Positions 4,256-13,102 are shown, counted from the first letter of the stretch. The stretch is DNA of 64,000 nucleotides from Eubacteriales bacterium (GCA_031546905.1 JAVBJQ010000041.1:39102-103101); one strand, 5' to 3'. Notes: a model not told the origin generated them from the letters alone. Translations and numbers: made by a program.

Positions 4256-4275
4256 GATAAATGAGTCACAAAAAA

Positions 4276-4316
4276 ATAGACCGTTAAAGCCTTTACGCTT
4301 TAACGGTCTATTTTTC
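4276..4316. terminator. bidirectional rho-independent terminator
   Basis: Perfect 15-bp stem ATAGACCGTTAAAGC / GCTTTAACGGTCTAT with a 6-nt loop. An A-run precedes it and a T-run follows. It sits between convergent genes. Confidence 0.8.
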
Positions 4317-4430
4317 ATAAATAATTTGTAAACCAATCCCGCCTTCAAGCGGTTGTGTAGGAGAGAGTGTTATTCACACCCTATTCTTATTATACGCACA
4401 TGATGAATTATTTATTCCTTGTCGGGTTTG

Positions 4431-4901
4431 TTATTTCTTTTTCTGCTGAGAATTTATAAAATCAAGTATTTTTAAAATACTTTGATTTTGTTGTTCTTCT
4501 CTCGTTATTATTGCAGTTCCATCCCCATCTTGCTCTCCATAATTACCAAAATAAGCATGATTTCCGCCTGCAATCTCAACTTTATCTTTCACATCCTCAA
4601 GCTTTGAGCGATTTAAAACACCATCTTCGCTACCATAGATTACAATCGTCGGCAGTGAAGCGGTATTAACAGAATAAGCACCTAGCAGAATCAAGCCTAA
4701 AACTTTATCAATATGTTTATTGGCATAGGAGCTTGCCATTGCACCACCTAATGAATGACCACCAATATACCATTTCTGTATTTCTGGGAACTTTTCAATT
4801 ACAGAATCCCCACGATTTACTCCAAAGACAGCGAGATTAAATGGCATTTTGACAAGCACACAAGTGATTCCGTTTTCAGCTTGAAGCAGTGGACTTTCAA
4901 A
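4431..4901 (-). pseudogene. 5'-truncated alpha/beta-hydrolase (C-terminal half only)
   Basis: Contains the nucleophile elbow GGHSLGGAMAS and the C-terminal IYGSEDGVLN..GGNHAYF. The frame is open only back to 4901 (..FESPLLQAENGITCVLVKMPFNLAVF). No SD or N-terminal region is present, and homology begins mid-protein 25 nt from the stop of the neighbouring giant ORF. Confidence 0.7.
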
Positions 4902-4926
4902 TTAATTCTAGTCACCTCAAAATATC

Positions 4927-7900
4927 TTAGTCATTAATTTGTTTTCTCTTTCCTATCAATTTTCCTATTTCATTTAAATAGAACATTCCAGATATATGCG
5001 GCATACTGTAACTCTTCTGGGATGAAAAATTGTCAGTAATAATTCCTTTTTCTCCCAGTATTGTCCAAAAAATACTATACCCACTTTCATTAAGATATTC
5101 AAATAAACGATTTTTATCAATAAAGAATCCTATGTCTTCATTTAGAAGCTCCATGCTATCAAAACATATTATCAAATTATTTTGATCATATAAAATCGAA
5201 TCCTCCTTTCCATACTTCATTTTTAAACAATTAAATAGTTCGCCACATGGCTTGTACCACATACAGCTGCTTTCTTCTCCAAGTGTATCCCCATCTCGCT
5301 CGGTCAGATATTTAAAAGTAGGAATTAGGACTTTACCAAGGTTTGCATACTTTTTCTCACGAAAGTTATCAATATCAACCCATTCTTCACCACAATAATA
5401 TGGGTTTTCAAAGAAGCTGTATCCTTCAGACCAATAATACTCTTTATTATAAAGTTGATGGTAATCCCTTGGCTCTGGCATCCATCGCCCCATAAAATCA
5501 GCATCTGAAAGTTTTGTTATTAATTCATCAAGTTGTTCTTTTTTCACAATATAACTATTTACCTGAACCCACATATTTTTTAAAGGATTCTGATATTTTT
5601 TATCTCCAAGAGCCTTTTCTTCTGTCCACGAATACTGACCATTCAACAAGATAAAGTCTCTGCTATTATAATGAATGTTCATTAATTTCTCTATGTCTGG
5701 TAAATCATTAAATTTCTTTAACCATTCGCTATGTTCTTGCTTGGGTATCTTATAAAGTTGCTGGTGAACAGATTTTTTACAACTACTTCTTTCAGTTTTA
5801 GTTAAGGATATTGTAGGGTCAATATTCCTAACATTAGGTTCAAACGAGCCTTTACAATAGACCTTATTTTTAGTTCCACGAGCATCCACATATATCTGCA
5901 TTTTATAGTTATCACTTACCTGTGCTGCTAACTCAAAAAATGCAATCCATTGATATTTTTTGCCTATTCTTTCTTTGGTATTGTTAATCGTTCTTCCACT
6001 ACCTCTATGTCTATCATATTGCCCATGCTTTTCAGCATCATATCCTAGATCAAAAATCTTTTTAATTGCAATATTTTTCAAATCCATTGGGTCTAGTTGT
6101 TTCCAGTTGCTAAAATAACTCTGAAATGTATACCTGCCGAAATCACCATACCCCCCTGGTGAACCATCTCGAGAATATTCCACCTTCATTGAGCTTAAAA
6201 TAGAATTTTGCCCCCAATAATAATCTTTAAAACCTTTATCTTTATGGTCATATTTGTATTTTTTTACCTCATCATCAGATGGAATGTTGGGGAATATAGA
6301 TTTATAAGGAGGAGTCACTTTTGTCATATCAATATCCAATTCGCTTAATCTATACTCCGCATAATCAATGATATTCTTAGCATAATCACGGAGTAAAATA
6401 TTCGGATAAACAAATTCTCTATTAAAGATAGCCTTATATACATATTTTGCAAGCAAAGTTAGTTGGGAATTATTCGTTTCGGATACTGAACACCCAAATG
6501 CAACCGCATATAAACGCTCAGCAACATAAGGATCGTCAACATCTCTAAATTTTTGCAATACTTGTATTAGTATTTCAACATGACCTTCTAATAGAGCTAC
6601 CATTGCTTTAGTACTCTTGTCACGCAAATGCCGATTTGAAGAAATCAAAAAAATAGATATCATTAATGCTGCAAGTCTAATGGCATCATCAGAAATTTTA
6701 TAATTTACTTTAGTTGATAAACACCAGTCTAGTATTCTATTTATAGAGGAGCCTTGATTATCAAAAAAAATATCAAACATAGGAATAAATAAAGCATCTC
6801 TGTCAGGCATGGATATTCCTAAAATAAAATCAACTGTCATGTCTGCGTTAAAAACAAACTCACTTTTTGTAGAAACCAGAATCAATGTTTCAATAAATTG
6901 TTCAAAAATATTACTATTACCTTTCATAATATATTTGTTGATATAATTAATAGTTTTCTCGTTAACAGAGTTTGAACTTCTCCACTTTAGACTCTCAATA
7001 AATGCACATTTCACTGCCTCATGTTCAGGTGCAAATATATCAAATATTTCGTAATCGGTATCTTCTGTAGCACAGATAGCCAAGCATCCCAATATATCCC
7101 TGTAATGAATGAGTCGAGCATATTTTTTCGCAAACACTTTGATATCATTTTGCAACTCTTGAATGAGTATTTTAGAATATAAGTAATCCTCTAGCTTTTC
7201 ATATGTTATAAACAGATACTCTTCGTCTTCATAATTTATATTTTGTGTCAATACTCCTTCTGAAAGCAATTGTTCCAAAAGATCAGATTGGCAATTGTAT
7301 TTATTTTGTATTTTAAGAATCACTTCAAACATATCTTGTAAAGGTATAAAATTGCCTCCAGAACCTTTTTCATATTTATATTTTATAATTTCATTAATTA
7401 CTTCTCTAATAACTTTATAACGATGATTATATCCACAATTCTCTGCTATCCTTTGATTTATTGCCTCTAAATAATTATTAAAAACCTCAGACAATGAAAT
7501 TTCATCTATATTTATTGAATGATTTCTGTGTCCTTCACAAAACAGTCTTAAAAACAGTGGATTACCAAATTCGTGATTTGCAAATGGAACATCAGAAAAA
7601 ACAATACCATAAAACTCAAAATATTTTTTTACCGCTATATACTCAAGGGATTTAAAGCCACTATGAGTTATCATAACTAGTTCATTACGTAAATCCTCAC
7701 TACCGTTTAGCAAAATCTCTGTGTATTCAGAGCGAATTGTGATTACAAGTCCTATCCATTGGAATTTTTTGATTTTTTCAATAATACCTGCTAAATAATT
7801 TTTCCAAATTGACTTACCGTTACCTTCATTCAAAGCATCAATAAAAATTATGATTCTTGATTGTTGTTCCTGTGCGATAGAATTTATTTGTTCTAAGAAA

Positions 7901-9003
7901 GAATCCACCTCTAATTTTACACCGAGGAAACTTATCATTTCGTTTAATGGTGGTACATATCCTTTAAAATGTTGTCCCAAAAATAGCAAAGATTTATTAT
8001 TGTTAGCAATCCTTCTTTCAATAGCATCTGCAAGCAAATGAGATTTACCAATTCCACCTTCTCCGTCAATTAAAATGTAAGGTTGATTAACCGCTCTAAC
8101 CTCTGGTGAATCTAAATATTCAATATACTCCTCAACAGAACTATATGCTTCTCTGACTGAATATAGTTTATCTCTAAGGCCACTGCTATTTCTGTCTTGA
8201 TTTATCTTTGAATTTAAATCTATCATTTCTTTATTAAGAATAGAAAATATATCCTCTAGCAATAGCCGTATTGTGCTAATATCTAAATGAGTATCTTTAT
8301 CAGCTAGAAAGATAGTCATTACTTCTGTAACTTTGTCAATTAGGCATTTTAATCCGTCAATATGTAATGATTTTATTTTTACTATTGCGTTATCACTCTT
8401 ATCTTTGAAACGATGATAAAAATCATCATTTTTCGCCAATCCATCAAATACTTTGCTAGTTTCGGTGGAGATATTTAAGTCAGGAATGTATCTGTTTCCA
8501 AGATTCTTTATTTGCTCACGATTCTGTCTTGTAAACCATTCATCTGATAAACTTGTCCAAGTCTGAGTATGAATAGTTTTATGGATAGCTAAAAGCTCAT
8601 TTTTTATGGTATTTAAATCATTTTGAGCGACTCCGAACATTCCTTGTATGTTTTCAATCTCAAACTTATTTTGCATAAGCACATAGAATATTGCTCGATC
8701 ACTTGGCTGAATATTTATATATATAAAATCCTTCGTTTTATTTAAAATTGTTATCAAGAACTCATTAACCAGTTTGGTATCAAGAATAGAAATTTTAAGT
8801 TCATTATTTTCTAATGTGTAAATTAATTGACTCTGCATTTCAGTTAAGTAAGTTTTTTCATCAATAGTTTCATTAGATATTTTTAGTACATATTCAAAAA
8901 TTCGAATGATAAGTTTATGATTTGTAATGTAGCCGCAAAACTTTCCAGTTGTTACTATTGTTCCACGGCTCTTTTTTTCAAATTCATCGACCCATTTTAA
9001 CAA
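4927..9003 (-). CDS. giant STAND/NACHT-like P-loop NTPase (candidate NLR-type defence protein)
   Basis: 1358-aa ORF. Walker A is ILIDGEGGIGKSHLL (near 8041-8075), Walker B is RIIIFIDALNEG, followed by WIGLVITIRSEY and GNPLFLRLFCEG (NACHT/STAND-like signature). The ~300-aa N-terminal and ~650-aa C-terminal regions have no motif I recognise. The frame stays open to 9126, with a GGAGGG SD at 9117-9122, so the real start is probably upstream of TTG 9003. Confidence 0.8.
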   Translation of the reverse strand: MLKWVDEFEKKSRGTIVTTGKFCGYITNHKLIIRIFEYVLKISNETIDEKTYLTEMQSQLIYTLENNELKISILDTKLVNEFLITILNKTKDFIYINIQPSDRAIFYVLMQNKFEIENIQGMFGVAQNDLNTIKNELLAIHKTIHTQTWTSLSDEWFTRQNREQIKNLGNRYIPDLNISTETSKVFDGLAKNDDFYHRFKDKSDNAIVKIKSLHIDGLKCLIDKVTEVMTIFLADKDTHLDISTIRLLLEDIFSILNKEMIDLNSKINQDRNSSGLRDKLYSVREAYSSVEEYIEYLDSPEVRAVNQPYILIDGEGGIGKSHLLADAIERRIANNNKSLLFLGQHFKGYVPPLNEMISFLGVKLEVDSFLEQINSIAQEQQSRIIIFIDALNEGNGKSIWKNYLAGIIEKIKKFQWIGLVITIRSEYTEILLNGSEDLRNELVMITHSGFKSLEYIAVKKYFEFYGIVFSDVPFANHEFGNPLFLRLFCEGHRNHSINIDEISLSEVFNNYLEAINQRIAENCGYNHRYKVIREVINEIIKYKYEKGSGGNFIPLQDMFEVILKIQNKYNCQSDLLEQLLSEGVLTQNINYEDEEYLFITYEKLEDYLYSKILIQELQNDIKVFAKKYARLIHYRDILGCLAICATEDTDYEIFDIFAPEHEAVKCAFIESLKWRSSNSVNEKTINYINKYIMKGNSNIFEQFIETLILVSTKSEFVFNADMTVDFILGISMPDRDALFIPMFDIFFDNQGSSINRILDWCLSTKVNYKISDDAIRLAALMISIFLISSNRHLRDKSTKAMVALLEGHVEILIQVLQKFRDVDDPYVAERLYAVAFGCSVSETNNSQLTLLAKYVYKAIFNREFVYPNILLRDYAKNIIDYAEYRLSELDIDMTKVTPPYKSIFPNIPSDDEVKKYKYDHKDKGFKDYYWGQNSILSSMKVEYSRDGSPGGYGDFGRYTFQSYFSNWKQLDPMDLKNIAIKKIFDLGYDAEKHGQYDRHRGSGRTINNTKERIGKKYQWIAFFELAAQVSDNYKMQIYVDARGTKNKVYCKGSFEPNVRNIDPTISLTKTERSSCKKSVHQQLYKIPKQEHSEWLKKFNDLPDIEKLMNIHYNSRDFILLNGQYSWTEEKALGDKKYQNPLKNMWVQVNSYIVKKEQLDELITKLSDADFMGRWMPEPRDYHQLYNKEYYWSEGYSFFENPYYCGEEWVDIDNFREKKYANLGKVLIPTFKYLTERDGDTLGEESSCMWYKPCGELFNCLKMKYGKEDSILYDQNNLIICFDSMELLNEDIGFFIDKNRLFEYLNESGYSIFWTILGEKGIITDNFSSQKSYSMPHISGMFYLNEIGKLIGKRKQIND

Positions 9004-9371
9004 CTCGTCTTGAAATTTTTGAATCGCTTTCTTATCTTTCCAGATTGCTATACCATCAAATAGAAAACTGGAAAATACATTTGTAATTATTCCTACTAAA
9101 GTTTCTATAATGACATCCCTCCATATTCTTCATGTTAGAATTATACTATACAAACAGGACAAATGCATGAAAAAAATAAGAAGAAGGAAGAAAAAATGAT
9201 ATAATCAAGTAAAAAAAGTTGTGTCAAAGAATGGAAGAAATATTTATATTTTTGGAAAGTATAGTAGACGACTGGCAAGAAATAGAGATATTCCGACAAA
9301 ATAATGACGAACTTCTGAAACGGTATGTACCACTAGAAACGGGATACCGTCACATGATATACTCGACGCAC

Positions 9372-9688
9372 TTAAAAACACTCAATAAGAACATCGTCTA
9401 AAGAAGAGAATTGAGGAAGGGATTTTACGCAATTGACGCTTAAGCTAACTCCAATATTTTTCTATAGGATTTAACTCTGGAGAGATGGTGGCAAAAACAT
9501 TAAGAGAGTCTAAGCTTTTTAGTAAGCAAAGTAAGCCTACTTTTTCTATGAAAAGAGGCATTATCCATCATGATGACAGATTGTTTAGGAAGGACTGGTA
9601 AAAGTTTTGTTTCAAACCAAGTTTCAAAAAGTGTGCTATTCATTGTACCATTATACTGTAGAGGAGAAACGATTTCTTGCCCGAATTG
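9372..9688 (-). mobile_element. IS630/Tc1-mariner family transposase relic (C-terminal DDE_3 portion, frameshifted, 5'-truncated)
   Basis: Reverse translation gives GQEIVSPLQYNGTMNSTLFETWFETKLLPVLPKQSVIMMDNASFHRK.., then (stop/frameshift) ..SPELNPIEKYWS*LKRQLRK, then (frameshift) SLDDVLIECF*. This is the conserved IS630 C-terminus broken by stops. No N-terminal half is present. Confidence 0.75.
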
Positions 9689-9704
9689 TGAGAACTATAT
9701 AGAT

Positions 9705-10061
9705 ATGACCGATTCAAATAGTATTATCGCTTTTGTAAATCGTATTGAAAAATACAAAGCAAACCAATACAAAATATATGAACTTGATGGCAATACGGTT
9801 AAAATGTTCCAAGATGGTTTTACTAGGTATATTAGAATTTTTAGTGCGTCTGCTATAGGTATAATGGTTTCTATTGGTTGTGCTATATTACTAAAAAACA
9901 CAGTACTATTTAAAATTTTACCTTTCCCATTAACATTGATCTCTCTACTTTTTGTAATTAGCAGTATGGCAATTGCGTGCCAAACACTGAGTGTATCTGT
10001 ATCGTTGGCTAAAGCAGGAAAAATTGAAGAAAAAGGTAATATTTTAAATAAATGTAGGTAA
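9705..10061 (+). CDS. hypothetical small membrane protein (two predicted TM helices)
   Basis: The track ORF 9570..10061 begins inside the IS630 relic. An internal ATG at 9705 gives 118 aa with two hydrophobic stretches (AIGIMVSIGCAILL; FPLTLISLLFVISSMAIA). No convincing SD. Confidence 0.3.
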   Translation: MTDSNSIIAFVNRIEKYKANQYKIYELDGNTVKMFQDGFTRYIRIFSASAIGIMVSIGCAILLKNTVLFKILPFPLTLISLLFVISSMAIACQTLSVSVSLAKAGKIEEKGNILNKCR

Positions 10062-10158
10062 AGCTCGTAAAGAGCTGCAAGTAAGCACTTGGAATAGTGA
10101 CGGTAAATTGCCTTTATAAAAACACAAGAAACACTTGATTGCGGAAGGAGGATTTCTT

Positions 10159-10215
10159 ATGAGTATGTATAGGTGGTGTTTTCGAGGTAAATACTCGGTA
10201 CAGTTGCAGAATTGA
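10159..10215 (+). CDS. 18-aa peptide ORF (MSMYRWCFRGKYSVQLQN), possible radical-SAM substrate/leader peptide
   Basis: A strong SD GGAAGGAGGA ends 7 nt before the ATG. The ORF lies 110 nt upstream of, and co-oriented with, the radical SAM gene. It is below the ORF-track size cut-off. Confidence 0.3.
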   Translation: MSMYRWCFRGKYSVQLQN

Positions 10216-10324
10216 TAACACGCTGTATCGAGGTTGGTATCTATTTGTTATCAGGTCACAGACTGTACCCATTTCATGATTAATTTTTGGAATAAAAAAT
10301 ATAAAACATGAAAGAGGTATTTGT

Positions 10325-11272
10325 ATGAAAACAAATCCATATTTAGATTTAAATAGAATTGAGTTTCTTGTTACGCTCCAATGTACTGGAAAATGTAAAC
10401 ATTGTTCAGTTGGAACAAGATTGAATGAAAAAAATAGCAAGTGCGTTGATGTAGAGAAAGCAATTGATATGATTGAGAAACTTTCCACACGGTTTTCAAT
10501 TGAATCTCTAATGACATTTGGAGGAGAACCTTTACTTTATACTGAAACAGCCTGCGCTATTCACAGAGCTGCTACACAATGCAAGATTCATAAGCGACAA
10601 CTGATAACGAATGGCTATTTTTCAAAAAATTCTCAAATAATTCAAGATACAGCTAGAAAAATTTATCAAGCTGGAATTAACGATATTTTATTGTCAATTG
10701 ATGCGTTTCATCAAGAAACTATACCTATAGAACCCGTACGTACGTTTGCAGAAGAACTTATTAAATGCAATGTTCCTAGTGTTTGTTTACACCCTGCATG
10801 GGTAATCAATTCTGAACATGTGAACATTTACAATTATACAACACATACTATTTTATCTTCGCTTTCAGAATTAGGGATTGAGACAACGAATGGAAATAAT
10901 ATTTTTCCATCAGGTAATGCTGCTAAGTATCTTTCGGATTTTTATAAATTACCTGAAAATCTTGATTTGACTTTTAAGTGTGGAGAAGCACCATACACTG
11001 ACCGACTTGACAATATCCATTCTCTTTCAGTAGAGCCTAATGGTGATGTATCAGTCTGTGCATTTGTAATAGGTAACATCTATGAAAATGATATTAATTA
11101 TATCGTTGATAGCTATAACCCATTTTCTAACGACATGATGAAAGCATTGATAGATGGTGGTGTTAATGCACTTCTGTGTTATGCTGAAGAACATGGTAAG
11201 CAAGTAGATGTGAGTGATTGTTATTCGGTATGCTCAGTATGTAGAAAAATAGTTAGTAGCTTCACGGCTTGA
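10325..11272 (+). CDS. radical SAM protein with SPASM/twitch-like C-terminal Cys cluster
   Basis: CTGKCKHC (CxxxCxxC) at aa 20-27, with GGEPLL, ITNGYF and LLSIDAFH motifs. The C-terminus has C..EPNGDVSVC (G-x4-C) and DCYSVCSVC cysteine motifs. Confidence 0.85.
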   Translation: MKTNPYLDLNRIEFLVTLQCTGKCKHCSVGTRLNEKNSKCVDVEKAIDMIEKLSTRFSIESLMTFGGEPLLYTETACAIHRAATQCKIHKRQLITNGYFSKNSQIIQDTARKIYQAGINDILLSIDAFHQETIPIEPVRTFAEELIKCNVPSVCLHPAWVINSEHVNIYNYTTHTILSSLSELGIETTNGNNIFPSGNAAKYLSDFYKLPENLDLTFKCGEAPYTDRLDNIHSLSVEPNGDVSVCAFVIGNIYENDINYIVDSYNPFSNDMMKALIDGGVNALLCYAEEHGKQVDVSDCYSVCSVCRKIVSSFTA

Positions 11273-11351
11273 CCTGTCGATAATAAGCAGATAGCAATAT
11301 GCCCCTATTTTTAAATAACCTCGTAAGTAATTGAATTATCAACGTCAATCT

Positions 11352-11382
11352 AAGCTCGGCATTTTGTTGTCGAGCTTTTTTA
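11352..11382 (+). terminator. rho-independent terminator after radical SAM gene
   Basis: AAGCTCG / CGAGCTT stem with a 12-nt loop, followed by TTTTTT. Confidence 0.6.
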
Positions 11383-11514
11383 GTTCTTTAAACTTAACAC
11401 CGTTACTAAGCAAGGCTATAAGATGAACAGAAATTTTACACCTCTAATGCTAAAACATGTATACATGTTTCTTTGTAGTAAAAACAGTATGTACATACAG
11501 GATTACCAGCACCC

Positions 11515-11562
11515 AATCAAAAAACCCCCGAAAAGCCTAATCGTATCAGCTTTTCGGGGGTT
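11515..11562 (-). terminator. rho-independent terminator of guaA
   Basis: 12-bp GC-rich stem CCCCCGAAAAGC / GCTTTTCGGGGG followed by a U-run on the minus strand, immediately after the guaA stop. Confidence 0.85.
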
Positions 11563-11569
11563 CTTTATT

Positions 11570-13102
11570 CTACTCCCACTCAATCGTTGCTGGTGGTTTT
11601 GAAGTTATATCATATACAATTCTGTTTACATTGGAAACTTCATTTACAATTCTTGTGGATATTTTTTCAAGAATGTCATAAGGTATCCTAGCCCAATCAG
11701 CAGTCATTGCATCGGTACTGGTCACAGCACGTAAAGCAATGGTGTAACTGTATGTTCTTTCATCACCCATTACCCCAACACTTCTAATGCCGGTTAGTAC
11801 AGTGAAGTATTGCCAAATTTCTTTATCAAGCCCTGCTTTTGCAATTTCATCTCTAAAAACAAAATCGGTTTCTCTTAACGTATCAAGTTTTTCTTTTGTA
11901 ATTTCCCCAATTACACGAATGGCAAGTCCTGGCCCTGGGAATGGTTGACGTCTTACAAGAAATTCTGGTATGTCAAGGGCTAATCCAAGTTCTCTTACTT
12001 CGTCTTTAAATAGTTCTCTTAGTGGCTCAATAATTTCTTTAAAATCAATTACATCTGGTAATCCACCTACGTTGTGGTGACTTTTGATTACAGCAGATGT
12101 TTTTGTGCCACTTTCGATGATGTCTGGGTAAATAGTTCCTTGTACAAGAAAATCAACAGAACCTAGTTTTCTGCCTTCTTCTTCAAAAATCCTAATAAAT
12201 TCTTCGCCAATTATTTTTCTTTTGGTTTCTGGATCAGAAACGCCTTTTAGTTTACCTAAAAATCGTTCTTCTGCATCAACTCTGATTAGATTCATGTCAA
12301 ACTTATTTTTAAAAATTTCTTCTACTTCGTCGCCTTCATTTAATCTCAGTAAACCGTGGTCTACAAAAATACAAGTAAGTTGTTTGCCAACTGCTTTGTG
12401 CAACATAACGGCTGCTACCGAGGAGTCAACACCACCAGATAATGCACAAAGAACTTTTTTGTCTCCAATTTTTTCTCTTAAAGCCGCAATAGATTCTTCA
12501 GCAAAGTTCTCCATAATCCATTCTGCTTTCACTTCACAAACTTGGAACAAAAAGTTTTTAAGAATGTCATATCCAAAAGGAGTATGCACTACTTCTGGGT
12601 GAAATTGAACCCCATATAACTTTCTTTTTTCATTGGCAATTGCCGCTGTTTCACAAGTTTTGGTAGAAGCAATAATTTCAAAATCAGCAGGAAGTTTGGA
12701 TAAATAATAAGTGTGGCTCATCCAACAAGTTGTGTCTTCCGCTAACCCTTTGAAAAGTAAGTTAGTATTTTTTAACGTTAAGTCAGTTTTACCATATTCT
12801 TTTTGGCTGGCTCTTGAAACTTCACCACCTAAAATATGACCCATCAGTTGACAACCATAACAAATGCCTAAAATGGGGATGCCTAAATCAAACATTTCTT
12901 TTTCAACAATTGGCGCATCTTTTTCAGAAACAACGCTAGGCCCACCTGTAAAAATAATTCCCTTGGGATTTTTCTCTTTTATGACATCTAACGGTGTGTC
13001 ATAAGGCAAAACTTCACAGTAAACATTCAGTTCTCTCACACGTCTGGCAATGAGCTGATTATACTGTCCGCCAAAGTCAATTACAATGATCTTATCATAC
13101 AT
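11570..13102 (-). CDS. guaA: GMP synthase (glutamine-hydrolysing)
   Basis: 510 aa with a GATase domain ([12 protein letters not shown]), the ATP-PPase motif SGGVDSS, and a conserved C-terminal PPATIEWE. Confidence 0.97.

Follow-up and report, generated by a model that had tools for sequence, protein, structure and literature searches.

The window considered here, the whole 64-kb stretch of DNA that was analysed, carries a truncated hydrolase gene, a single-gene defence system, transposase debris, a small membrane-protein gene and a radical SAM gene ahead of the guaA terminator:

4431-4901, minus strand: 5'-truncated Abhydrolase_5 gene, a pseudogene remnant (Pfam PF12695, homologue lengths, tblastn)
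4902-4926, no strand assigned: left junction, made up of the TAA closing the hydrolase frame (4904-4902) and the 22 nt before the Avs2 stop codon (sequence reading)
4927-9108, minus strand: Avs2 (AVAST type 2) STAND NTPase gene, 1393 codons from the ancestral start position (PADLOC, NCBIfam, PDB match)
9117-9122, minus strand: GGAGGG ribosome-binding site, followed 8 nt downstream by the ATA that occupies the ancestral start of Avs2 (sequence; alignment to a Propionispora homologue)
9231-9395 (approximate), plus strand: putative N-terminal fragment (DDE_Tnp_1_assoc) of an ISAs1-type transposase, frameshifted (six-frame reading, PF13808)
9395-9662 (approximate), minus strand: IS630-family transposase relic, C-terminal part of DDE_3, with a frameshift and a stop (PF13358)
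9570-10061, plus strand: small zinc-ribbon/membrane-protein gene, 5'-truncated or chimeric (exhaustive phmmer, alignment)
10325-11272, plus strand: intact stand-alone radical SAM enzyme gene (Pfam PF04055)
11352-11382, plus strand: intrinsic terminator of the radical SAM gene (terminator scan)
11519-11566, minus strand: guaA terminator, an inverted repeat with 18-nt arms that are 94% complementary, the right limit of the interval first proposed

The hydrolase is, by alignment, truly 5'-truncated, exactly where the defence gene ends. Its translation matches Abhydrolase_5 (E 4e-41) over profile positions 23-164 of 164, and tblastn homology begins at 4895/4892, corresponding to residue 83-92 in the homologues, in agreement with an earlier sequence-only reading that homology starts mid-protein. 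The stump retains the serine motif (GHSLGG) and the histidine region (GGNHAYF) and lacks the N-terminal anchor and the first strands (FYPGGKVE), with ~85-95 N-terminal residues gone. The best 120 homologues are mostly 223-248 aa long, with a membrane anchor and the FYPGGKVE strand at the N-terminus; exceptions among the matches listed are the self-match, a few proteins of 160-217 aa (mostly from ~1 kb contigs) and five of 250-257 aa. The absence of the N-terminal half, noted before, extends to every frame of the 64-kb window, in which all other tblastn matches have E > 0.05. The left breakpoint is placed between 4896 and 4926. The Avs2 stop codon occupies 4929-4927, and 22 nt separate it from the hydrolase-frame TAA; the 25 nt given previously are correct as a start-to-start distance. 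Avs2 has no terminator of its own at this junction, the terminator-scan hairpins lying only at 4339-4352 and 4272-4315.

Judged by profile and structure matches, what had been called a giant NTPase is Avs2, a full-length STAND protein that makes up a single-gene anti-phage system. The PADLOC Avs2 model PDLC02162 matches over its full length with 1172.5 bits (protein 10-1355 against profile 31-1372 of 1379), NCBIfam NF041813 with 988.4 bits (E 7e-297), slightly under its curated cut-off of 1000, and the EcAvs2 chain 9o4e_A in the PDB with E 1.2e-187 (query 165-955 against chain 142-965), the ATPase, TPR and C-terminal sensor being homologous; a Walker A motif, GEGGIGKSH, is seen in the translation. 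The ORF is uninterrupted, but its conserved Met codon is ATA (9108-9106): in protein and DNA alignments of the N-terminus, homologues begin M-[DE]-T-L exactly at this codon, and the Propionispora homologue has ATG there. No ATG, GTG or TTG occurs between the upstream stop and 9003, where the first canonical start, a TTG, is found. Translation would therefore be at best weak and near-cognate, or the protein 36 residues shorter; the ATA could also reflect a sequencing or assembly error in the draft genome.

The N-terminal ~140 aa of Avs2 form an all-alpha region in the AF2 model, for which neither Pfam, nor the solved chain, nor a Foldseek fold search gives a match; other close relatives carry SIR2 or metallophosphatase domains at this N-terminal effector position. 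If expressed, Avs2 would work as described for its family: it would recognise a protein of the phage, usually the large terminase, oligomerise via its STAND ATPase and activate the N-terminal effector, here a predicted, uncharacterised all-helical domain, leading to abortive infection. The closest relatives are only 57% identical, one cluster among them, at 90% identity, has members in both an Agathobaculum sp. genome and a Lachnospiraceae MAG, and a Propionispora copy adjoins an IS21 fragment; together with the reported extensive HGT of Avs2 (PMC13601566), these observations fit horizontal movement of single Avs2 genes.

Between Avs2 and the membrane ORF lie one transposase remnant and a probable second one. 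The IS630 relic of the sequence-only reading is real: its 47-aa ORF matches PF13358 with E 6e-4, and the fragment spliced across the frameshift matches DDE_3 with 40.7 bits (E 2.7e-10), a partial match covering profile positions 57-135 of 146. Most of the element is gone from its 5' side, including the first two-thirds of the transposase, and a search around 9380-9700 found no matching terminal inverted repeats; what is left is a relic, not a complete element. The probable ISAs1-like relic beside it had been overlooked; its hand-spliced peptide scores 23.4 bits against PF13808 (E 6.5e-5), below the gathering score of 32.3.

The membrane ORF, previously described as weak, belongs by homology search to a real small protein family: it has no match in Pfam, PADLOC or PHROG, and exhaustive phmmer finds 17 relatives (the query's own 100% match excluded), the best of which is 58% identical over query residues 37-160. 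Family homology starts at about nt 9675 (residue ~34-37), beside the truncated end of the IS630 relic, and sequence antisense to that relic stands in place of the first ~16 family codons, which include the first CxxC. Because the ORF is cut by the relic at ~9665-9675, the clearly foreign block probably spans ~4902-9665 (4.8 kb) and not 6.6 kb, and the right-hand boundary of the foreign DNA is probably not at the guaA terminator, to which an island had been drawn. It is very improbable that the junctions arose by chimeric joining during assembly of a draft or metagenomic contig: IS repeats are well known to provoke misjoins, and no other copy of the sequence occurs in the collections searched, but the junction at 4902-4926 is non-repetitive, frames, ribosome-binding sites and terminators are coherent on either side of it, and a second IS copy to drive a misjoin is absent from the window.

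The radical SAM protein has a CxxxCxxC motif and a C-terminal Cys cluster. The best 120 of its 5802 relatives (E 1e-5) are 49-71% identical over nearly the full length, and by these matches the gene belongs to a widespread stand-alone clostridial family. Foldseek pairs the AF2 model (pLDDT 94) with 8ai1, EpeE/YydG (TM 0.65, E 5e-13), which is also the best profile match in the PDB (E 2e-7); on such model comparison, the nearest solved relative is the peptide epimerase EpeE/YydG, the likeness being at fold level only, and the protein scores 46.8 bits against TIGR04078, below the cut-off of 300. No protease or ABC transporter gene was found in the window or at any of the nine distinct loci examined. 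The homologues are stand-alone chromosomal genes in many unrelated contexts, with neighbours that are often drug- or xenobiotic-type genes. Since the family occupies variable contexts elsewhere, the radical SAM gene could equally be cargo, which favours the original proposal of a single accessory island that fills 4902-11569, from the hydrolase to guaA, and carries the membrane ORF, the mini-peptide ORF and the radical SAM gene. The items listed for that interval are all present, although the label non-core has yet to be established for two of them, the membrane ORF and the radical SAM gene; every ORF in 4902-11569 is accounted for, and none encodes an integrase or recombinase. An island of this extent nevertheless appears unlikely, since the cut 5' end of the membrane ORF is what an insert into a resident gene would leave behind.

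Composition bears on the same question. The tetranucleotide distance of 4902-9662 is 0.202, against a background of 0.142 ± 0.013, a value reached by none of 191 background windows; nowhere else in the 64 kb does a stretch of that size deviate as strongly as the Avs2 and IS block. The remainder, 9663-11569, is marginally atypical (4% of background windows exceed it), in mild support of the single island. The difference from the flanks predicted for 4.9-11.5 kb is thus borne out by tetranucleotides for 4902-9662, but GC content and codon usage do not set the claimed island apart, against a single island to guaA; Avs2 codon usage is like that found elsewhere in the window (z = +0.7). For the Avs2 and IS block taken by itself, a GC of 0.309 against 0.337 for the window leans toward foreign origin. 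Part of the k-mer deviation could stem from the odd amino-acid composition of one very long gene.

Nor does the guaA end carry a repeat or att site: the search for direct or att-like repeats at the flanks yielded only chance-level matches of 14-22 nt, none involving 11519-11620, so the guaA 3' end is not duplicated, and no terminal repeats or target duplications marking the block edges were found. Where the nearest genomes retain guaB and guaA together, deoC, a permease and purH come after guaA and none of the interval's genes does, as a single island would predict; however, the best GuaA identity is 78% among GTDB representatives and 76% among metagenomes, with no relative close enough to show an empty site in the collections searched, and the lack of conserved synteny at such distances is uninformative.

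Avs2 could instead be a long-term resident, with the stumps left, as the region decayed, by local deletions unrelated to any insertion or by rearrangements that IS elements mediated. The fully host-adapted codon usage of Avs2, the tiny IS relics and the lost Avs2 ATG all indicate age, but two resident genes have both lost their 5' ends exactly toward the Avs2/IS block, the k-mer signal is strong, and Avs2 genes are known to move horizontally (PMC13601566); the absence of any recent insertion is improbable. The truncation of the hydrolase at the Avs2 end, the mobile-element debris and the extreme tetranucleotide deviation make foreign insertion with loss of resident DNA the best reading. With moderate confidence, we favour a foreign block of ~4.8 kb (Avs2 plus two IS fragments) lying between two resident genes that have both lost their 5' ends, the block itself decaying. 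Insertion plus deletion of foreign DNA, as first suggested, is therefore supported by the truncation, the IS debris and the k-mers, though not in its extent to the guaA terminator.

The resident genes would originally have been transcribed divergently: the Abhydrolase_5 hydrolase from the minus strand, and from the plus strand the zinc-ribbon membrane-protein gene with the radical SAM gene behind it. The hydrolase and the membrane-protein gene would have lost their 5' ends, together with the promoter region between them that they shared, when the block arrived or through later deletions at its edges; what remains would be two pseudogene stumps facing the Avs2/IS block. Decay of the block itself would account for two transposases that are short and frameshifted and an Avs2 that starts with ATA. 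The analysis itself establishes the truncations, what each part is, the altered Avs2 start codon and the unusual k-mers; we infer this order of events, a single replacement event and the resident status of the segment holding the membrane ORF and the radical SAM gene. The Avs2 insert would then be a routine, ageing case in which a single-gene defence system lands, damages its neighbours and decays; it adds one Avs2 subtype with an uncharacterised helical effector and opens no new question.

The radical SAM gene is preceded by a leader:

10140-10324, plus strand: conserved leader of the radical SAM gene (alignments, pair counts, covariance model, folding)
10159-10215, plus strand: upstream ORF (the mini-peptide ORF), MSMYRWCFRGKYSVQLQN, with its own GGAGG (sequence alignments)
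10194-10203, plus strand: segment 1
10213-10219/10247-10253, plus strand: hairpin P2
10223-10232, plus strand: segment 2
10263-10271, plus strand: segment 3

The mini-peptide ORF reported earlier thus exists and is conserved at other loci. Alignments and covariance-model matches place the leader at eight loci, and it is kept where the downstream proteins are only 51-71% identical; pair counts reveal compensatory base changes in three helices, and the fold has a z-score of -3.0. An anti-SD stretch is predicted to pair with AAGAGGTA of the radical SAM gene. Rfam gave no match at gathering thresholds over the window, and in 10040-10340 only chance-level miRNA and plastid matches with E > 1. The same leader also precedes a class I methyltransferase gene in at least one genome, and two radical SAM orthologues lack it. 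Occupying the upstream ORF gave no consistent effect in simple thermodynamic modelling. The chances seem evenly balanced that this is a previously undescribed clostridial regulatory leader, in which a translated upstream ORF sits in a bistable RNA and one invariant segment pairs with either of two look-alike partners, the losing partner masking the downstream SD; it would control the widespread radical SAM enzyme that resembles EpeE and, in one genome or more, a SAM-dependent methyltransferase of class I. Such a leader could act as a new riboswitch or as an attenuator that senses ribosomes or the nascent peptide (in response to a drug, for instance); the short ORF could instead encode the substrate peptide in a minimal RiPP system of two genes. 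Conserved, with compensatory changes, outside any Rfam family and upstream of two different SAM-using enzymes, the leader is the part of the locus worth following, and it may offer a handle on the function of a large clostridial radical SAM family.

Among known systems, Avs2 (EcAvs2, PDB 9o4e; PMC13601566, PMC11564622) resembles the window's protein in its full-length model match, its ATPase, TPR and sensor, its single-gene organisation and the variable N-terminal effector position; the latter protein differs in its all-helical N-terminal ~140 aa and its ATA start. Integrase-borne islands at the guaA 3' end (GIsul2, PMC9376610; streptococcal ICEs/IMEs, PMC4701971, PMC5357655) likewise place foreign DNA downstream of guaA, but the window shows neither an integrase nor an att-like repeat, the guaA 3' end is not duplicated, and the foreign block sits 1.9 kb from guaA, with probably resident genes between. 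The Bacillus subtilis epipeptide system (EpeE/YydG and EpeX/YydF, PDB 8ai1) shares the enzyme size and a short ORF directly upstream. By contrast, the window lacks the EpeP protease and the EpeAB transporter, its short ORF is unrelated to EpeX, and its leader also precedes the methyltransferase and is missing from two orthologues.

The erm/cat-type resistance genes are controlled by translation attenuation through a leader peptide. Unlike these, the radical SAM leader has, to our knowledge, no known inducer, and its peptide resembles no arrest peptide known to us. It is like them in its short upstream ORF with its own Shine-Dalgarno sequence, its drug-response-flavoured neighbours and its helices that exclude one another, the downstream gene's Shine-Dalgarno sequence being engaged in one of them. 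The pairing logic is different: here, one segment would pick between two look-alike partners.

Two genes in the window lack their 5' ends, and both stumps face a block holding a gene for Avs2, an anti-phage protein (AVAST type 2 STAND NTPase), and remnants of IS elements. In the most economical history, a hydrolase gene on the minus strand and a zinc-ribbon gene on the plus strand would be former divergent neighbours, and foreign DNA with Avs2 and the IS elements would have replaced their shared promoter region and both gene starts, in a single event or via subsequent edge deletions. We regard as rather probable this reading, in which the foreign block spans about 4902-9665 and the zinc-ribbon stump, the leader RNA and the radical SAM gene are resident. 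The features, in window positions, are as follows.

4904-4902 (TAA) to the stop at 4431, minus strand: hydrolase fragment, whose frame reads ...FESPLLQAENGITCVLVKMPFNLAVF...
4927-9003, minus strand: Avs2 ORF, 1358 aa
9231-9395, plus strand: probable ISAs1-type transposase relic with a DWxEIExF...NGIPSHD signature and a frameshift
~9395-9662, minus strand: IS630 relic, only the 3' third of the element remaining
9570-10061, plus strand: zinc-ribbon membrane ORF
10140-10324, plus strand: leader of the radical SAM gene
10159-10215, plus strand: upstream ORF within the leader, MSMYRWCFRGKYSVQLQN, with GGAGG 8 nt upstream
10325-11272, plus strand: radical SAM gene, with a CxxxCxxC motif and a C-terminal cysteine cluster

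The TAA that closes the hydrolase frame lies 22 nt from the stop codon of the large upstream gene (4929-4927). The 156-aa translation of the fragment matches Pfam Abhydrolase_5 (E 4e-41) over profile positions 23-164 only. Most of its 120 best homologues are ~223-257 aa long; those listed as shorter are P0001, the self-match, and others of 160-217 aa that come mainly from ~1-kb contigs. Full-length homologues have an N-terminal hydrophobic anchor, a YTLDYYRAD motif and an FYPGGKVE strand. When eight of them were compared with the window by tblastn, homology began at 4895 or 4892, corresponding to homologue residue 83-92, and nothing resembling the missing N-terminus was found across the whole 64 kb. 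Because the homologues are longer, the homology starts so late and the N-terminus is absent, the fragment is, judged by homology, a gene that has truly lost its 5' end, as opposed to a paralogue that is short by nature. A reading made from the sequence alone had placed a truncated hydrolase next to a giant NTPase gene, which the profile match from position 23 and the tblastn onset confirm, and had searched for the lost part in 11280-11520 only; its view that the C-terminal half is kept was right as to truncation but not proportion, since ~60% of the protein is retained.

Matches to Avs2 models and to a solved structure identify the NTPase ORF as Avs2: it aligns end to end with PADLOC model PDLC02162 (1172 bits), scores 988 bits against NCBIfam NF041813, marginally under the curated cut-off of 1000, and matches the Avs2 structure 9o4e across the ATPase-TPR region (E 1e-187). 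Relatives of the same architecture begin M-[DE]-T-L-x-x-I-x-x-N-I-F-S-S-F-L-Y-D, and the window encodes a matching N-terminus in frame upstream of a TTG at 9003, preceded by an intact GGAGGG 8 nt upstream of the first codon (9106-9122, minus strand). The Met position is occupied by ATA (9108-9106), the ATG of a Propionispora homologue aligns onto it at the DNA level, and the frame contains no alternative start codon from the preceding stop to the TTG; for these reasons the canonical start is considered lost. A database protein with 100% identity (P0241) has 1358 aa, and public annotation appears to start Avs2 36 codons later, at the TTG. The gene may be silent or have low expression, or the ATA itself may stem from a sequencing error.

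For the N-terminal ~140 residues, modelling predicts only helices (pLDDT 84-91 across residues 30-130), and Foldseek found no match to this model among solved structures; close relatives carry SIR2 or metallophosphatase domains at the same position. Avs2 proteins are noted for extensive horizontal transfer and effector diversity, and the effector of EcAvs2 is described as uncharacterised (PMC13601566). Horizontal mobility of the window's subtype is supported by comparison with its relatives, because the nearest are only 57% identical and one 90%-identity cluster, that of the closest relative P0242, brings together sequences of an Agathobaculum sp. genome and of a Lachnospiraceae MAG, and because the Propionispora copy adjoins an IS21 fragment. 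If the two labels mean different lineages, the P0242 cluster would indicate a recent transfer between them.

To the right of the Avs2 promoter region come remnants of two transposases. The IS630 relic already seen in the sequence-only reading is real: its 47-aa ORF alone matches Pfam DDE_3 with E 6e-4, and when spliced across the frameshift it reaches 40.7 bits, above the Pfam cut-off, over profile positions 57-135 of 146. Between it and the Avs2 promoter region sits a second relic, absent from that reading, which is rated a probable rather than a proven ISAs1-type transposase because its match to DDE_Tnp_1_assoc (E 6.5e-5) is under the gathering threshold. The block is old enough for its transposases to have shrunk to fragments, its codon usage to be host-like and its Avs2 ATG to have gone. 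With such ageing on one side and a mobile Avs2 subtype on the other, decay in situ with no distinct insertion seems quite improbable.

Next to the relics, what had been taken for a weak membrane ORF is not spurious and belongs to a genuine small family. An exhaustive search of 1.84 billion representative proteins returned 17 relatives besides its own sequence, mostly of 123-184 aa and at best 58% identical; no model in Pfam, PADLOC or PHROG covers them. Its members combine an N-terminal zinc ribbon (CxxC...CPxC) with a conserved RIEEYKANGYK linker and hydrophobic segments, and carry ISLTKTGKIEETGNVLK at the C-terminus. In the window, homology begins at residue ~34-37 (~nt 9675); the ORF has lost its native start along with the first CxxC, and the 30 codons that now open it read antisense to the IS630 relic. 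By alignment with its family, the ORF is 5'-truncated at the junction with mobile-element debris.

GC content is 0.309 in 4902-9662 versus 0.337 in the whole window, Avs2 (GC 0.307) lies 1.5 sd below the per-gene mean, and codon usage falls within the window distribution (Avs2 z = +0.7, membrane ORF -0.3, radical SAM gene +0.3). Neither measure separates the interval from its flanks; tetranucleotides alone discriminate. The 4.76-kb Avs2 and IS block has a tetranucleotide distance of 0.202 versus a background of 0.142 +/- 0.013, exceeding all 191 same-size windows, and this counts as support and not as proof because an unusual amino-acid composition in a single long gene can raise the value. 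Of the background windows, 4% deviate as much as or more than the 1.9-kb segment that carries the membrane ORF together with the radical SAM gene. The compositional departure looked for in an island is thus present for the Avs2 and IS block in tetranucleotides, while GC and codon usage are typical. The entry of foreign DNA with loss of resident DNA, as proposed in the sequence-only reading, stands as the kind of event, but the 6.6-kb length given to it (4902-11569) is over-extended: a single island reaching past the zinc-ribbon stump and the radical SAM gene to guaA is doubtful. An assembly chimera is very improbable.

Exact-protein look-ups found no copies of GuaA, the neighbouring sugar-phosphate isomerase-like protein or the annotated hydrolase stub on any other contig; the best GuaA identity is 78% among GTDB species representatives and 76% among JGI metagenome contigs. 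Twelve window proteins and the full-length hydrolase homologue P0005, compared by tblastn with loci of GuaA relatives, revealed no conserved synteny around guaA at 76-78% GuaA identity, except occasional guaB-guaA adjacency. The two nearest loci with guaB and guaA side by side (L007, L008) carry deoC, a xanthine/uracil permease and purH after guaA. Downstream of guaA in another genome (L002) come a phage-type endolysin and a holin and, beyond them, 1.7 kb from guaA, a full-length member of the same hydrolase family; as a candidate for the predicted ancestral state, an intact hydrolase adjoining guaA, this arrangement was rejected for its opposite orientation, an identity of only 54% and the intervening phage lysis genes.

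In the sequence-only reading, this locus beside guaA would be a hotspot where strain-variable cargo is to be expected. The endolysin (Peptidase_M15_4/VanY) and holin lie directly downstream of guaA at L002 10185-11484, in the second-closest genome (77% GuaA), a hint that mobile-origin DNA may have landed beside guaA there too. The guaB-guaA gap is ~8 kb in L011, L014 and L019 (Vallitaleaceae and Eubacteriales MAGs), and the genes are adjacent in the window and many other relatives; in these three loci, a variable region may lie on the other side of guaA.

Identity to the radical SAM protein is 49-71% across almost the whole length for the 120 best relatives listed; the matches within E 1e-5 number 5802, among them radical SAM proteins of a more generic kind. 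The gene stands alone in nine distinct loci with unrelated neighbourhoods, among them lepA-hemN-hrcA, birA and clusters of GNAT/hexapeptide acetyltransferases, flavin reductases, AraC/MerR/Cass2 regulators and MFS pumps. Matches to prokaryotic viperin (PADLOC pVip, NF038283) reach no further than the core common to radical SAM proteins and were rejected as evidence of defence. A confident AlphaFold model (50 sequences, pLDDT 94) has as its best structural match, by a clear margin, EpeE/YydG, the Bacillus subtilis radical SAM peptide epimerase (TM 0.65, E 5e-13; next SkfB, TM 0.53), which also comes first in a profile search of PDB sequences (E 2e-7). The protein is a fold-level relative of EpeE/YydG and not a member of its family: alike in fold, it scores 46.8 bits against the curated YydG model, whose cut-off is 300.

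The mini-peptide ORF of the sequence-only reading is present and conserved, as part of a 185-nt leader that is 83% identical to the leader of an orthologue, whereas the encoded proteins are only 70% identical. In L162-L167, L169, L170, L171/L172, L173 and L176 a related leader stands before the radical SAM gene, and two other orthologues (L161, L168) lack one. When 2.3 Mb of unrelated clostridial DNA was searched with a covariance model built from six leaders (R1), a single additional independent copy came up, in a Vallitaleaceae MAG (L014; 47 bits, E 8e-9). This copy (upstream ORF MKKIERINNSVQLI) lies ~4.7 kb downstream of guaA and precedes not a radical SAM gene but a class I SAM-dependent methyltransferase, whose sole NCBIfam match, to a 23S rRNA G745 methyltransferase, is very weak (E 5e-4). 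Leader copies are located as follows.

L162, 5375-5570
L169, 5848-6006
L170, 335-496
L171, 3818-4006
L173, 136-298
L176, 1230-1404
L014, 16186-16331

A 33-aa zinc-ribbon mini-ORF lies just upstream of the L162 leader; the ORF upstream of the L171 leader was considered as kin of the membrane ORF and rejected as unrelated.

All eight leaders, a sample from which the structures themselves were derived and in which two registers were set by hand, contain a short ORF of 14-35 codons with its own Shine-Dalgarno sequence and often an RW(C)FIRG-like motif. Within it lies a near-invariant segment 1 (CTCGGTACAG), followed by the look-alike segment 2 (CTGTATCGAG) and segment 3 (CTGTACCGA), each able to pair with segment 1 in mutually exclusive helices, a hairpin P2 between segments 2 and 3, and a stretch after segment 3 complementary to AAGAGGTA, the main gene's Shine-Dalgarno region. 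Across the alignment of six leaders, pairing reaches 94-95% in the two alternative folds, versus 23-49% in slid controls, and with L014 and L176 included, registered by hand, all three helices show compensatory changes. P2 of L176 keeps 7 of 7 pairs, all but one different from those of the other leaders and five changed on both sides; helix P1 keeps 8 of 9, three changed on both sides; the alternative helix of segments 1 and 2 keeps 9 of 10, and both L176 and L014 carry double changes in it. Compared with shuffled sequences, the leader of the window has a more stable fold (z = -3.0), and it matches none of the Rfam families. Because the residues encoded over segment 1 change from YSVQ to IPAR in L176 and pairing is maintained, covariation places the constraint on this segment at the level of RNA and not of peptide.

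We give about an even chance to the leader acting as a regulatory switch dependent on the upstream ORF; when a ribosome on the upstream ORF was modelled in silico, the accessibility of the main Shine-Dalgarno region showed no consistent change. The ORF might instead encode the precursor peptide of a minimal EpeE-like RiPP pair and carry the RNA structure incidentally, which is less likely. A metabolite riboswitch with an incidental ORF is unlikely.

The 135-nt spacer between the radical SAM and guaA terminators (11383-11518) contains a perfect 18-nt palindrome, AAACATGTATACATGTTT, at 11453-11470 and a 12-nt one, GTATGTACATAC, at 11488-11499, each unique in the window; the palindrome at 11454-11469 was rejected as a recurring element, occurring once in the window and at chance level with mismatches allowed.

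Searches for repeats and att sites, which the sequence-only reading had envisaged at the flanks, were negative for direct repeats, att-like sequence and duplication of the guaA 3' end, and the interval contains no recombinase gene. On these results the interval does not belong with integrase-type guaA islands such as GIsul2 (PMC9376610) and streptococcal ICEs (PMC4701971), from which it differs in having neither a recombinase nor a duplicated guaA end. As a single-gene Avs2 defence insert, ordinary and ageing, the island is of a known kind, and the adjoining leader RNA is the only element here that might be new.
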